From positions 42,273-106,272 of the forward strand of contig CAZYXJ010000001.1 in assembly GCA_964651115.1 (NCBI GenBank): a stretch of DNA of 64,000 nucleotides, given 5' to 3'. Source of the stretch: an uncultured Candidatus Saccharibacteria bacterium. Lineage in GTDB: Bacteria > Patescibacteriota > Minisyncoccia > Phycocordibacterales > JACOZG01. This document shows positions 2,343-60,829 of the stretch, piece after piece; position 1 is the stretch's first letter, and each line of letters starts with the position of its first letter. Below the pieces are notes generated by a model that did not search any database, was not told the DNA's origin, and saw only the letters and a list, made by a program, of their open reading frames with translations. Both the position numbers and the translations under genes were made by a program.

Positions 2343-3284
2343 ATGAATACCAAAACAACGGCGCGGGATTTTTTCCTGCAACTGGGAGTGACGGTGACGC
2401 TCTACGTGAGTGCTGTCAGTTTGCTGACCTTGCTCTTCCAGATTATTAATTTAGCTTTTCCGGATGCGCTCGAGTCCCGTTATTACGTCGACCCATACTC
2501 CACGGGCATGCGCTGGGCGATTGCCTGCCTCTTTATCGTTTTTCCGCTCTACTTGGTGCTCTCGTGGTTGGCCAACCGTGATTATCGTCGGGAGCCAGCC
2601 AAGCGCGAGCTCGGCATCCGCAAGTGGCTCATCTTTTTTACGCTCTTCGTGGCGGGGGTGGCGCTGGCCGTCGATCTGATTACGCTCATTAACTACTTTT
2701 TGGGCGGCGAGATTACGATCCGCTTCGTGCTTAAAGTCTTGGCGGTACTGGTGGTGGCGGCCGTCATCTTTGCCTATTACTTGGTGGAGGTCCGGCGCGA
2801 GCAGGGGTGGTCGCGGAGCGCCAATCGTGCCTTTGCCTGGGTGGATGGCGCGGCGGTCCTCGGGGCGATCATTCTTGGCTTTGTGGTGATGGGTTCGCCC
2901 TTTACCGTCCGGCTGGGACGTTTTGATCAGCAAAAGGTTTATGATTTAGAAAATATCCAGTGGCAGGTGATTGACTACTACCAGCGCCAAGCGCATCTCC
3001 CAGCTGATTTGGCCGCTCTGACCGACTCGATCGGTGGCTGGAGCGCGCCGCTTGATCCCCAGACTGGCCAGCCGTACGACTACCGGATGGTAACGCCGCT
3101 CTCCTTTGAGCTCTGTGCGGACTTTAATCGTGAAAGCGCCCCAAGCCAAGACAAGAGCTTGACGCGGCCGATTGAGCCGACCTTCTCTAACTGGGAGCAC
3201 GCGGCGGGGCGGCAGTGCTTTGCTCGCGTCATTGATCCGGTCCGCTATCCAGTGAACAAACTCAATGGAGACGTACGATCATAA
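2343..3284 (+). CDS. multi-pass membrane protein, DUF5671-like
   Basis: Several hydrophobic helices. The N-terminus MNTKTTARDFFLQLGVTVTLYVSAVSLL resembles the DUF5671 family common in Patescibacteria. An extended -10 (TGTTATAAT at about 2327-2335) sits immediately upstream, so the start is probably the internal Met at 2343 and the mRNA may be leaderless. The ORF track starts at 2301. Confidence 0.5.
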   Translation: MNTKTTARDFFLQLGVTVTLYVSAVSLLTLLFQIINLAFPDALESRYYVDPYSTGMRWAIACLFIVFPLYLVLSWLANRDYRREPAKRELGIRKWLIFFTLFVAGVALAVDLITLINYFLGGEITIRFVLKVLAVLVVAAVIFAYYLVEVRREQGWSRSANRAFAWVDGAAVLGAIILGFVVMGSPFTVRLGRFDQQKVYDLENIQWQVIDYYQRQAHLPADLAALTDSIGGWSAPLDPQTGQPYDYRMVTPLSFELCADFNRESAPSQDKSLTRPIEPTFSNWEHAAGRQCFARVIDPVRYPVNKLNGDVRS

Positions 3285-37635: not shown

Positions 37636-37660
37636 GGGACCCCTTAAGGGGTCCCTTTTT
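37636..37660 (+). terminator. rho-independent terminator
   Basis: GGGACCCC-TTAA-GGGGTCCC followed by TTTTT, directly after the ABC exporter stop codon. Confidence 0.8.
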
Positions 37661-59158: not shown

Positions 59159-59237
59159 TGCCCTCTATCGTACCACGCGTCCGGTCCCCCACCAACGGTT
59201 GCGAACGAATAAAAATATGGTACCATTACTGCCGAAC

Positions 59238-59277
59238 GGCCCTATCGTCCCTGCCTGCGCAGGCAGGTAATGGCTAG
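59238..59277 (+). other. tRNA-Glu 5' fragment copy interrupted by a perfect 18 bp palindrome
   Basis: GGCCCTATCGTC, then CCTGCCTGCGCAGGCAGG, then TAATGGCTAG. The two flanks are identical to nt 1-12 and 13-22 of the downstream tRNA, with the palindrome inserted between them. Confidence 0.45.
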
Positions 59278-59323
59278 TGATGTTCCGGATAAAACAAAAA
59301 GAATCGTTTCGTAAATAACATAA

Positions 59324-59398
59324 GGCCCTATCGTCTAATGGCTAGGACATCACCCTCTCACGGTGGTAATCGGGGTTCGACTCCCCGTAGGGTCACCA
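59324..59398 (+). tRNA. tRNA-Glu (anticodon CUC), CCA encoded
   Basis: Manual cloverleaf: acceptor GGCCCTA/TAGGGTC, D-arm GTCT..GGAC, anticodon stem TCACC/GGTGG with loop CTCTCAC, T-arm CGGGG-TTCGACT-CCCCG, discriminator A and CCA. Confidence 0.7.
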
Positions 59399-59438
59399 AG
59401 TCGTGCTGAGTCTGTATGCACGAGAAGCGTCGAAAAAT

Positions 59439-59945
59439 ATGGAACAAATTCTCAAGTTAAATCCAAGCAATATCACCGATGAAGCGTCTGCCCGCCTAAA
59501 AACAAGGTTCGCTTCTAGGGGTGTTGTTTTTGACGGGGATAAAAATGTAGCTCTTCTGCCAGTAACGGCTCATAACTATTACAAACTTCCTGGCGGCGTG
59601 ATAGAAGATGGTGAGGATAAGGTGGAAGCTTTTCGCCGAGAATGTTTGGAGGAAATCGGTACGGATGTGGATGTAATCCAGGAACTCGGTTCAGTGGTGG
59701 AATATCGGGCAGAATTTTCTCTGGTTCAAACATCCTACTGCTATGTCGGCAAAATAAAAGGTGAAAAACATAAAGCTACATTTACTCAACACGAGCTAGA
59801 TAGTGGTTTTCGAGATGCAATTTGGCTACCACTGGAGAAAGCTATTGAGCTCATGGAAAGTCAGGCCGATAATCATGAGGGCAAATATGTTGTTGAGAGA
59901 GATACTTTCTTACTGAAAAAAGTTGGGGCCTTAAAAACTATCTAG
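59439..59945 (+). CDS. NUDIX hydrolase
   Basis: Nudix box GGVIEDGEDKVEAFRRECLEEIG (Gx5Ex7REUxEExGU). Start probably the ATG at 59439 (MEQILK). The ORF track opens at the GTG at 59403. Confidence 0.72.
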   Translation: MEQILKLNPSNITDEASARLKTRFASRGVVFDGDKNVALLPVTAHNYYKLPGGVIEDGEDKVEAFRRECLEEIGTDVDVIQELGSVVEYRAEFSLVQTSYCYVGKIKGEKHKATFTQHELDSGFRDAIWLPLEKAIELMESQADNHEGKYVVERDTFLLKKVGALKTI

Positions 59946-59950
59946 CCAAA

Positions 59951-59995
59951 AACCCCCTGATCAACACTCGGTGTTGATCAGGGGGGGGGGGTGAC
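59951..59995 (-). repeat. dispersed palindromic element copy 2 (inverted) with G11 tract
   Basis: CCCCCTGATCAACAC-TCG-GTGTTGATCAGGGGG followed by G-run 59981-59991. It is the reverse complement of copy 1 (38319-38366), including the 11-nt homopolymer. Confidence 0.65.
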
Positions 59996-60065
59996 AGGGG
60001 TTCTTAAAAAAAATTAGGGGGCGCTCGAGAAGCATAATTAATGGCTTTTCTGCTATCATACTATT

Positions 60066-60608
60066 ATGAATAGCTCAGTCATCGTTCTAAACGGTCCAAT
60101 GTGTGCAGGAAAAAGCACGATCACAAAGCTACTGATGCAGAATAATAATGTTTTTCGTGGTTCTTATGATGCAGTTAAGTGGCTTATAAGTAACTATTCT
60201 GCCGACAATGAAAATCATAGAAGAATTGCAAAAGAAGTAATTTTCAGTGCAATAACTACTGCTATTGAATCTGGTTTATCTATTGTTATAGATGGCGGTT
60301 TTGCAGATTTTAGAAACAGATACAAAGAACTTGCTCAAAAGTTTAATTTTGAGTATATAAGTCTAAATATTGAGGCGCCTATCAAAGTTTTAGAAAAAAG
60401 ATTCTTGGAACGAGTTAATTCCGCTAACCAAGTAAATAGTAAGACTATCAGTGTAACAACGCTAGAAGGTTTTTATTCTCGATATCAATGGTATTTGAGT
60501 ACCAACAAAGATTTTGATGGAATTACCTTTGATTCGAGTAAATTAACAGCAGAAGAGATTGTTACCGAAATTATAAAATTAACCAAAGTCCGCCACATGG
60601 CGGGCTAG
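60066..60608 (+). CDS. P-loop kinase, chloramphenicol phosphotransferase (CPT)/zeta-toxin-like
   Basis: VIVLNGPMCAGKSTI resembles the CPT N-terminus IILNGGSSAGKS. About 180 aa, similar in size to CPT. Very low GC, about 35%. Confidence 0.6.
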   Translation: MNSSVIVLNGPMCAGKSTITKLLMQNNNVFRGSYDAVKWLISNYSADNENHRRIAKEVIFSAITTAIESGLSIVIDGGFADFRNRYKELAQKFNFEYISLNIEAPIKVLEKRFLERVNSANQVNSKTISVTTLEGFYSRYQWYLSTNKDFDGITFDSSKLTAEEIVTEIIKLTKVRHMAG

Positions 60609-60648
60609 GTAGGGTCGCGAGTCGAGTGAACACGCGAGAACTTGTGAC

Positions 60649-60667
60649 CGACTCCCCGTAGGGTCAC
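60649..60667 (+). repeat. direct repeat of tRNA-Glu 3' end (attR-like)
   Basis: CGACTCCCCGTAGGGTCAC is identical to tRNA positions 59376-59394. A second GTAGGGTC motif lies at 60609-60616. Confidence 0.6.
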
Positions 60668-60829
60668 AAAGTCCTTGAGCTTGACAAATACTTAAAATAT
60701 AACATACTTATTAGGATTCCTTAGCTTGTTGCTAGGGAAAATTAACAAACGTCTCTGGGGGTCCGCCCCCTCGTCCGGTCCGCCGGAGACAAAGAGACCA
60801 ACGCGCCTCCGTGGTGCAAGGAGCTTGAG

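Follow-up and report, generated by a model that had tools for sequence, protein, structure and literature searches.

A putative family of 18-bp palindromic insertions in Patescibacteria, exposed by a truncated tRNA-Glu copy

A perfect 18-bp palindrome, CCTGCCTGCGCAGGCAGG, designated PAL in this report, splits a short copy of the 5' end of a tRNA-Glu gene in contig CAZYXJ010000001.1 of an uncultured bacterium of the Patescibacteria (assembly GCA_964651115.1). The whole stretch of DNA that was analysed, 64,000 nucleotides in length, is referred to as the window. The interrupted fragment is a truncated, non-functional tRNA copy. Comparison with other genomes strongly indicates that PAL is a precise insertion from a family dispersed in Patescibacteria and that it is under translational selection; equally, the comparisons indicate that cassettes carrying a GIY-YIG nuclease gene duplicate the 5' parts of tRNA genes and decay to short spacers. 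The window locus is probably the product of two selfish processes acting at one tRNA gene, with a 22-nt 5' copy left as the scar of a decayed cassette and PAL added by a separate insertion. PAL appears to be an undescribed dispersed palindromic insertion of unusually small size, and neither the 18-mer nor LPAQAG, the peptide read from it in its commonest frame, was found in the literature searched.

Results

The tRNA-Glu fragment and the palindrome

The split copy was located at positions 59238-59277 by direct reading and by a pattern search, and consists of nt 1-12 of tRNA-Glu(CTC), then PAL, then nt 13-22 (Table 1). This arrangement had been described in an earlier, sequence-only reading of the same DNA and it stands: the alignment of the palindrome and its flanks to the tRNA is exact, and the perfect 18 bp palindrome was confirmed by direct reading. 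The spacing required a small correction, as the fragment does lie upstream of the intact tRNA but the gap is 46 nt and not 47. The pattern of fragment, PAL and fragment was matched in none of 100 shuffles. PAL is composed of two 9-nt arms with nothing between them and, as single-stranded DNA or RNA, is predicted to fold into a 7-bp stem with a 4-nt loop. It is present once in the 64-kb window, even when as many as three mismatches are allowed.

Past nt 22 the split copy is no longer alignable to the tRNA. Positions 59277-59286, directly after the nt 1-22 copy, read (G)TGATGTTCC / GTGATGTTCC and resemble the reverse complement of tRNA nt 22-30, GGACATCAC, at 9/10 positions; in the predicted fold of a precursor GTGATGTTCC pairs with the nt 22-30 region of the real tRNA. 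This complementarity may be the trace of a template switch or may be due to chance. An origin of the fragment as an internally deleted tRNA or as a fold-back copy was considered and rejected, the resemblance of the spacer start to nt 40-51 (8/12) and to the reverse complement of nt 22-30 (9/10) being too short in both cases. A tandem duplication of the leader and tRNA 5' end was also rejected, as the spacer shows no relationship to the sequence that precedes the fragment. Rfam returned nothing except tRNA over the window region, with no intron family, and a uxuA-like match of 23 bits, against a gathering score of 66.8, was treated as noise; the fragment is not covered by another known RNA family. 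A possible promoter picked out by eye (Table 1) would, if used, put the fragment and PAL in the leader of the pre-tRNA. The working gene is the intact tRNA-Glu; if co-transcribed, the fragment is merely part of that leader.

Distribution of PAL

The exact 18-mer was sought in one genome per species (596 Gb) and was found in at least 120 stretches, compared with about 9 expected at equal base frequencies; the chance expectation is far below 9 in low-GC DNA. The results were studied as 8-kb stretches of other genomes (sequences compared here are numbered with the prefix L). Among the matches listed, 71 of 120 belonged to named Patescibacteria lineages by their record titles and came from many unrelated projects. 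They included WWE3, Microgenomates, Woese-, Gottesman-, Beckwith-, Shapiro-, Uhr-, Kaiser-, Nomura-, Yonath-, Zambryski-, Wildermuth-, Magasanik- and Staskawiczbacteria, Saccharibacteria, Dojkabacteria and Paceibacterota. The remaining matches listed were from Bacteroidota, from doubtfully labelled low-GC bins and from GC-rich genomes in which chance is plausible. The flanks of these PAL copies were mutually unrelated.

Further copies in the same 8-kb stretches, which were not selected for, comprised five exact copies, five with one mismatch and none with two or three, a rate that corresponds to roughly one PAL per 100 kb. These data suggest that the copies are young or constrained. Variants were also found in which the arms CCTGCCTGC and GCAGGCAGG were kept (L195/L216 8651 and 10083, L110 486, L168 3218, L039 3426 and 4814, L219/L235, L094 393, L225 4190 and L043 3404), while the centre was CG, CCGG, CCGGT or CCGA, or held an extra CCTG unit or an 18-nt loop. 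Constant arms with variable centres are as expected if the stem, or protein contact with the arms, is what matters. Solitary half-sites proved to be PAL variants with altered centres, and the idea that PAL was left by a larger transposon bounded by CCTGCCTGC...GCAGGCAGG was abandoned, as no pairs of half-sites 0.3-6 kb apart bounded anything in low-GC loci. A phage origin was likewise rejected: PAL was present in 25 IMG/VR contigs, most of 58-67% GC and with no tRNA context, where it is probably chance or native sequence.

Two side observations concern other palindromic sequences in the retrieved loci. A second GC-rich perfect palindrome, TCCGCCAGCTGGCGGA (16 bp), occurs in six unrelated loci (L073, L089, L104, L112, L119 and L166) from Patescibacteria and Bacteroidota, all of which were retrieved only for containing PAL; it may represent a sister family. 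In Bacteroidota bins (L019, L040, L078, L084, L090 and L109, all from Sphingobacteriales MAG bin43, and L112/L119 from a Bacteroidota MAG) PAL forms the centre of longer, modular repeats, and the arm modules GCGTTAACGAYGGTAGCGG, AGCGTGTTA, GGGCGTTT and GGATG are combined differently to its left and right, as though PAL were a point of arm exchange.

Insertion geometry

Sites with an uninterrupted tRNA copy adjacent served as empty-site controls (the window, L034, L117 and L045), and in each of these exactly 18 bp had been added, with no bases duplicated and none lost. At 98 low-GC sites among the matches listed, a purine was found at position -1 in 79 and a pyrimidine at position +1 in 74, and no other positional bias was detected around PAL. 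The symmetry of purine, PAL and pyrimidine is as expected if one rule acts on both strands. At the window site PAL is preceded by C and followed by T, which agrees with the pyrimidine half of this pattern and not with the purine half.

PAL within protein-coding genes

PAL contains no stop codon in any frame. Among the matches listed, 69 copies were situated in open frames of at least 200 aa (examples in Table 1), and were read as LPAQAG in 51 cases, PACAGR in 12 and CLRRQ in 6; the numbers expected from purine/pyrimidine sites in the same open reading frames (ORFs) were 23.6, 17.5 and 28.0 respectively (p = 9e-12). The low-GC loci alone gave counts of 39, 9 and 2 in the same order (p = 1.5e-10), and the CLRRQ frame was depleted about 5-10-fold. 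The host genes include those for GatB, UvrD/PcrA, DnaG, superoxide dismutase (SOD), GlyRS, a DnaQ-like exonuclease and EF-Ts. In alignments LPAQAG falls opposite a gap in the solved SOD and UvrD structures; only two of 14 Patescibacteria SODs have it, the query and its 99% twin, and 12 orthologues lack it. The frame bias argues against removal of PAL at the RNA level and against an artefact, and it points to a PAL that is translated, with copies in the other frames presumably removed by selection.

PAL in tRNA genes and the GIY-YIG cassette

Metagenomes were scanned for PAL followed by TARTGG within 0-2 nt, and the complete set of matches comprised 94 stretches with 99 sites, 89 of them distinct; PAL lies in a tRNA D-arm in the 94 stretches. 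In the dominant order, nt 1-10 of tRNA-Gln are followed by PAL, by nt 11 to about 25, by an ORF of 80-93 aa and, about 270 nt after PAL, by an intact tRNA-Gln. The ORF has the motif MWYVYILKS..WYYVGSTN..HN.G and matches Pfam PF01541 (GIY-YIG). Its closest solved structures are the UPF0213 proteins BH0048 and EF2693 (1zg2, 1ywl), with SLX1 a weak match, and the cassette protein is a bare catalytic domain. Such ORFs were found directly after a 5' fragment with PAL in 37 instances, and an intact tRNA-Gln follows in 34 of them. The GIY-YIG nuclease gene was also the only protein gene that recurrently adjoined PAL in the 8-kb stretches of other genomes.

A block of 311 nt is 100% identical between L187 (367-677) and L211 (reverse strand, 1-311), which derive from different samples. 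The block runs from the fragment through PAL and the nuclease gene to nt 10 of the downstream tRNA, and beyond it the tRNA-Gln bodies differ in their anticodon stems and flanks. Identity that gives way to divergence in this manner implies that the cassette entered different tRNA-Gln alleles. The downstream tRNA carries PAL in L187 and lacks it in L211, a presence/absence difference on an otherwise identical cassette.

Other arrangements were an intact tRNA, the nuclease gene and a PAL-bearing full-length copy (L188, L197 and L239), or the nuclease gene, an intact tRNA and a PAL-bearing copy (L171 and L045). Full-length tRNA-Gln genes with two 18-nt inserts were seen in L188 (810 and 854), L197 (4265 and 4307; the same as L213), L194, L189 (1066) and L230. 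One of the inserts was PAL after nt 10. The other was a second PAL, exact or slightly altered (CCCGCCTGCGTAGGCAGG, CCTGCATGCGCAGGCATG), and lay within the anticodon loop (at 35/36 or 37/38), within the anticodon stem or within the T-loop (at 56/57). Wherever the contig was long enough, an intact twin with the same anticodon was found beside every full-length PAL-bearing tRNA, which implies that PAL persists in a redundant copy. The sequence-only reading had suggested, as one possibility, that a tiny palindromic insertion element targeted an ancestral tRNA copy. The element is strongly supported, the same 18-mer being found in more than 100 unrelated Patescibacteria sites and repeatedly in tRNA D-arms, and PAL does sit in a tRNA copy; that copy need not be ancestral, as elsewhere PAL occupies the redundant member of a pair.

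PAL follows nt 10 in the large tRNA-Gln group, and nt 12 in the window, L172, L238/L244 and L127/L243. In L101 (Saccharibacteria; 4643 and 6119) it follows nt 9 of short 5' fragments resembling tRNA-Thr, each about 19 nt ahead of an intact tRNA gene; the architecture is that of the window, seen here in a different tRNA family and a different class. To judge from their positions, the insertion points in tRNAs (after nt 10, 12 and 9, and in the loops) appear to be independent. Of the unselected low-GC PAL sites among the matches listed, about 8 of ~105 were in tRNA fragments, far above the share of such DNA in a genome; this excess may mean either that tRNA DNA is a preferred target or that PAL rides with the cassette, or both. 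The D-arm sites after nt 10 and nt 12 are exactly 2 nt apart. Characterised GIY-YIG endonucleases make cuts staggered by the same distance, with a 2-nt 3' overhang; the agreement may be fortuitous, or it may hint that PAL goes in after cleavage by a nuclease.

Other hairpins and another candidate nuclease were noted at related loci. GIY-YIG genes of the cassette family without PAL are still preceded by other GC-rich hairpins, as in L002 3294-3323 (TCCTCCGAAGGAGGA, CCCTCCTCCGGAGGG); further GC-rich hairpins were seen after PAL in L172 (CCCGCCGAAGAGGCGGG) and upstream of the GIY-YIG genes in L016 and L087. At L044 3540-4000 an ORF of 111 aa stands between a tRNA fragment that carries PAL (nt 1 to about 38) and, downstream, an intact tRNA. 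By eye this ORF has an HNH-like motif, DFDH...CANCH, in place of GIY-YIG, and it gave no Pfam or NCBIfam match.

The locus in relatives

Homologues of its RmuC assign the window to Patescibacteria, with MAGs of the Paceibacteria/Zambryskibacteria type as neighbours. The nearest available relatives showed only about 74% identity in RmuC, and the murF-rmuC interval differs among them. When the tRNA-Glu locus was aligned across relatives, the fragment was missing from L247, which has a tRNA-Glu identical to that of the window, from L005, which has another allele, and from L006. It is therefore not a conserved element, and its presence in all relatives as a conserved regulatory element, which the sequence-only reading had weighed, was not borne out.

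At the syntenic murF-rmuC locus, L002/L003 have nt 1-35 of a tRNA-Glu, after which come a pair of GC-rich hairpins, a GIY-YIG gene of 86 aa and an intact tRNA-Glu that belongs to the other allele. In this lineage, the syntenic place can hold a nuclease gene with a 5' fragment of tRNA-Glu next to it. L006 holds an intact tRNA-Glu of allele 'A' and, 135 nt past it, a displaced 3' end of the other allele (3002-3040, compared with L002 3670-3710: the last 17 nt of 'B' with the native downstream flank); L002 holds nt 1-35 of 'A' before an intact 'B'. These sequences suggest that allele replacement between 'A' and 'B', in both directions, has taken place at one and the same locus in sister lineages.

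Short-spacer loci

In 13 sites a fragment with PAL is separated from an intact tRNA by a spacer of 16-83 nt and no nuclease gene is present. Recognisable cassette ends were found in three of the 13. The spacer of L204 closes with 43 nt that match the 3' end of L229 (E = 2e-6), and that of L238 with 27 nt that match the 3' end of L172 (E = 1e-6). In L169 the ORF is retained at its start as well as at its end (E = 3e-5 and 0.002). These three loci appear from the matches to be internal-deletion derivatives of cassettes. The closest analogue of the window is L238, where PAL follows nt 12 and the spacer is about 45 nt.

Origin of the window locus

In the explanation that we favour, a cassette with a small GIY-YIG (UPF0213/Slx1-like) gene and a replacement 5' part of the tRNA would invade tRNA-Gln or tRNA-Glu genes, leaving the old 5' fragment, the nuclease gene and an intact tRNA in that order. 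In the window the nuclease gene would later have been lost by internal deletion, giving the 46-nt spacer, and PAL would have hit the fragment between nt 12 and 13. As the comparisons show, PAL behaves as a dispersed insertion unit that goes in precisely and without target duplication, with a preference for a purine/pyrimidine junction, and that survives only where it is tolerated, namely in intergenic DNA, in redundant tRNA copies and, in the LPAQAG frame, in protein loops. Spacer nt 14-29 match L002 3580-3595, the 3' end of the GIY-YIG gene of L002, at 14/16 positions, and the two segments are equally far, 16-17 nt, from the tRNA start. We infer that the window fragment arose from a GIY-YIG cassette, the locus being a presumed decayed derivative of such a cassette rather than a member of the cassette group. 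The PAL copy of the window would be a private event; no second tRNA-Glu with PAL was present among all the matches of the metagenome scan or among the genome matches listed. Either the scar or the insertion of PAL may have come first.

Several points weigh against this explanation. The match between the spacer and L002 is short (14/16) and 2.5% of shuffles score as well; against the tRNA-Gln cassettes the spacer gave E = 0.37, which is not significant. No GIY-YIG gene or protein-level remnant was detectable in the window, and the tRNA of L002 is oppositely oriented relative to rmuC, so that collinearity of the two loci is not strict. PAL is missing from some cassettes (L002, L016 and L155), and the metagenome set, having been chosen for PAL next to TARTGG, overstates cassettes with PAL. 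PAL at position 10/11 of tRNA-Gln may go back to a single ancient insertion, carried along by the spreading cassette, and not to many separate hits. As to the family as a whole, taxonomic shares among the matches listed may be skewed by database order, PAL in GC-rich genomes (Streptomyces, Terriglobia, Burkholderiales and most viral contigs) is probably chance or native sequence, and no insertion enzyme or mechanism has been identified for PAL, whose mobility is deduced from distribution only.

A different order of events, which we consider unlikely, would have PAL inactivate the only tRNA-Glu(CTC), an intact copy then being gained downstream and kept by selection, with the fragment as the remains of the damaged original. 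The intact copy could have come by recombination with incoming DNA or with a nuclease cassette. In favour of this order, full-length PAL-bearing tRNA-Gln genes exist (L161, L171, L203, L226 and L241), a GIY-YIG gene and an intact tRNA stand directly beside such a copy in L171, L188 and L197, and the window fragment is preceded by the native flank on the rmuC side, with a plausible promoter. However, tRNA-Glu(UUC) could read GAG, so that loss of the CTC gene need not be strongly selected against, and a PAL-bearing full-length tRNA-Glu was not encountered in the metagenome scan. This order predicts the same final structure as the decayed cassette with a separate insertion.

Repeated integration and excision of an island, leaving 5' and 3' tRNA fragments with the palindrome as an att-core or junction leftover, is very unlikely to account for the split copy. 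The nearby duplication of the tRNA 3' end noted in the sequence-only reading is real (24/25 between 59378-59402 and 60649-60673), and this 25-nt direct repeat, whose start is in the T-loop, encloses a low-GC island of 1.27 kb. The interval 59378-60673 looks like cargo or a remnant left by an element that integrated at the 3' end of the tRNA, and L006 too has a displaced tRNA 3' end. No tyrosine or serine integrase was found among the ORFs between and around the repeats, which are NUDIX, P-loop kinase and a hypothetical protein, and no integrase gene lies in or beside the locus. Integration by tyrosine integrases duplicates the 3' part of a tRNA, so that nt 1-22 at the 5' side are left unexplained, and the palindrome is not specific to the locus, being unchanged in more than 100 unrelated sites, some of them within genes. 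The successive integration and excision proposed earlier may hold for the 3' repeat and low-GC island, which look classical, while the 5' fragment fits a cassette scar as in L002/L003 and dozens of tRNA-Gln loci. The NUDIX and kinase proteins were used to seek the right-hand junction in a separate assembly, and neither was found on a record.

It is highly improbable that the fragment and hairpin act in cis in the rmuC/tRNA-Glu promoter region, as an operator palindrome or as a leader decoy that pairs with the acceptor 3' strand. The position between the divergent rmuC and tRNA-Glu genes would suit such a role, and folding of a hypothetical precursor is predicted to bring an upstream GGCCCUA into pairing with the 3' strand of the tRNA, but that fold is no better than those of shuffles (z = -1.18). 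The element is missing from all relatives examined (L247 with its identical tRNA, L005 and L006), the same palindrome is found within coding regions elsewhere, and no other exact combination of tRNA-Glu and PAL was found in the metagenome scan or among the genome matches listed.

An assembly or library artefact, such as a chimeric join or an adapter-like palindrome, is scarcely credible. Palindromes do break de Bruijn graphs, and the contig from the independent Logan assembly of SRR14271375 (L001) ends inside PAL, its position 1 corresponding to about 59266 of the window. L001 nevertheless also contains rmuC, the fragment and the junction of fragment and PAL (this run may or may not also underlie the metagenome-assembled genome). 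The flanks of PAL continue the tRNA in direct orientation without loss, unlike adapters or inverted chimeras; identical PAL loci recur in independent samples and assemblies (L034 = L195 = L216; L154 = L156 = L184), and the reading-frame bias and lineage restriction are biological signals. Such perfect palindromes are a probable cause of broken Patescibacteria assemblies in which neighbouring tRNA genes go unseen.

Features of the locus and other palindromes of the window

The coordinates of the features are collected in Table 1. Three perfect palindromes of at least 18 bp were found in the window, compared with about 0.24 expected. At 37636-37655 GGGACCCCTTAAGGGGTCCC is followed by a T-run and is an ordinary terminator-like palindrome, and at 1998-2015 TTGCCGCTTAAGCGGCAA, an 18-bp perfect palindrome within a long open frame, is read LPLKRQ. 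The other long palindromes of the window (1998, 32620, 37636 and others) were considered as PAL-like elements and rejected, being an ordinary terminator and coincidences of coding sequence.

Table 1. Features at the tRNA-Glu locus, in positions of the window, and examples of PAL read in frame in other stretches
Feature	Position	Strand	Remarks
Possible promoter, TTGCGA, 16 nt, TGgTACCAT	59199-59226	+	By eye only; under consensus-scan threshold
tRNA-Glu nt 1-12 copy, GGCCCTATCGTC	59238-59249	+	12/12 identical to 59324-59335; acceptor 5' strand, nt 8-9, first 3 nt of D-stem
PAL, CCTGCCTGCGCAGGCAGG	59250-59267	none	Between tRNA nt 12 and 13; target bases neither doubled nor lost
tRNA-Glu nt 13-22 copy, TAATGGCTAG	59268-59277	+	10/10 identical to 59336-59345; D-loop and start of D-stem 3' strand
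A/T-rich spacer, 46 nt	59278-59323	+	Possible 3' remnant of deleted GIY-YIG cassette
Intact tRNA-Glu(CTC), CCA encoded	59324-59398	+	ARAGORN; Rfam RF00005, 58 bits
Left copy of 25-nt direct repeat	59378-59402	+	tRNA nt 55 (T-loop) to 3' end, plus 4 nt
Low-GC island	59403-60648	+	32-46% GC vs 52-58% in flanks; NUDIX and P-loop kinase-like genes
NUDIX gene	59403-59945		In the island
P-loop kinase-like gene	60066-60608		In the island
Right copy of 25-nt direct repeat	60649-60673	+	24/25; CCA to CAA; displaced tRNA 3' end
In-frame PAL, examples	L036 4497, L051 2175, L087 4948, L115 3434, L127 6192, L043 6279, L075 1106		About 60 more

Discussion

The genomes of Patescibacteria are among the smallest and most streamlined bacterial ones, and are nonetheless apparently hit repeatedly by a fixed 18-bp palindrome, even in essential enzymes. 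If confirmed, PAL would constitute a new, extremely small class of selfish DNA and a natural experiment on the protein loops that tolerate a 6-residue insert. It would also serve as a marker of recent insertion events in uncultivated lineages, and would be a practical hazard that breaks short-read assemblies and hides or splits tRNA genes from annotation tools. The cassette of GIY-YIG gene and tRNA would account for puzzling tRNA fragments beside tRNA-Gln and tRNA-Glu genes, and hints at a possible function for UPF0213 proteins. The window locus itself is best read as a decayed scar of modest importance; it exposes the putative PAL family.

A more speculative view, which we regard as doubtful, is that Patescibacteria have an undescribed mobile system of two components, with PAL as the cis part and the ~85-aa Slx1/UPF0213-like GIY-YIG nuclease as the trans part. 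The nuclease would read the extruded palindrome or hairpin as a structure and spread solitary PAL copies, including the LPAQAG inserts in essential genes, and would also home its own cassette into tRNA genes. If this were true, PAL would be the smallest known mobilisable DNA unit, and the widespread UPF0213 family would have its first assigned function.

Several known systems resemble parts of this picture. The island bounded by a tRNA 3' repeat is of the attL/attR type known from integrases; the likeness is confined to the 3' side and does not extend to the 5' fragment, and it differs in having no tyrosine or serine integrase gene beside the repeats. The cassette resembles, by analogy, a homing-type element such as SegB of phage T4, a free-standing GIY-YIG homing endonuclease whose gene lies next to tRNA genes (T4 elements PMC2988022; SegB PMC13096335). 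In both the nuclease gene adjoins tRNA genes and is inherited with adjacent tRNA sequence, and one cassette was found in different alleles (L187 and L211). The cassette proteins, however, are about 85 aa, with the catalytic domain only and no DNA-binding domain, their hosts are cellular, and the cassette duplicates the 5' part of its target tRNA. A nuclease gene beside the target, as in a homing cassette, is present in L002/L003 and in the 37 PAL-bearing tRNA-Gln loci and not in the window.

Insertions in the tRNA genes of Patescibacteria have been catalogued as group I introns, including at position 35/36 (PMC13011429), and this 2026 survey makes no mention of palindromes, GIY-YIG or tRNA-Gln. 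The introns share with PAL the host group and the target class, but they are self-splicing, are several hundred nucleotides long and interrupt functional tRNAs, while PAL is 18 nt, has no intron features and occupies redundant or truncated copies. The window copy stops at nt 22, so its host tRNA is incomplete, which sets it apart from any tRNA intron, whether group I or of the archaeal bulge-helix-bulge type.

Among small transposable sequences, miniature inverted-repeat transposable elements (MITEs) are about 50-500 bp, whereas PAL is 18 bp with no internal sequence and was inserted without target-site duplication in the window, L034, L117 and L045. Absence of target duplication is shared with elements derived from IS200/IS605, from which PAL differs in having no one-sided tetra- or pentanucleotide target, a symmetric signal, and one hairpin in place of distinct left and right ends. 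The GC clusters of yeast mitochondria are organellar elements of about 30-50 bp, fall into several classes and have flanking repeats of a target dinucleotide. Like PAL they are small GC-rich palindromes spreading in an AT-rich genome, and they occasionally land in frame (var1) and in rRNA genes; PAL differs in lacking the target duplication.

Repetitive extragenic palindromes (REPs) are extragenic, imperfect and species-specific, have a GTAG-type head and are mobilised by RAYT (TnpA-REP) transposases. PAL resembles REPs and REPINs as a short, GC-rich dispersed hairpin with a master sequence and one-mismatch neighbours, and the GIY-YIG gene preceded by PAL is comparable to the repeat-flanked single-copy gene that is proposed to act in trans. 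In contrast, PAL is perfect and not extragenic (69 copies in ORFs of at least 200 aa among the matches listed, with SOD and UvrD verified), has no GTAG head and no conserved flank past -1/+1, and is common to phylum-level lineages; no link between PAL and RAYT is known, and no search aimed at RAYT was made. The palindromic elements of Rickettsia, reported by Ogata and colleagues in 2000, are said to be about 100-150 bp, with diverged copies, and to be confined to Rickettsia. PAL, at 18 bp, adds 6 residues and leaves no room for the Rickettsia consensus, and is letter-perfect across many Patescibacteria classes. The two are nevertheless alike in being inserted in frame into conserved protein genes and tolerated as extra surface peptide segments, the translation of PAL being deduced from its frame bias.

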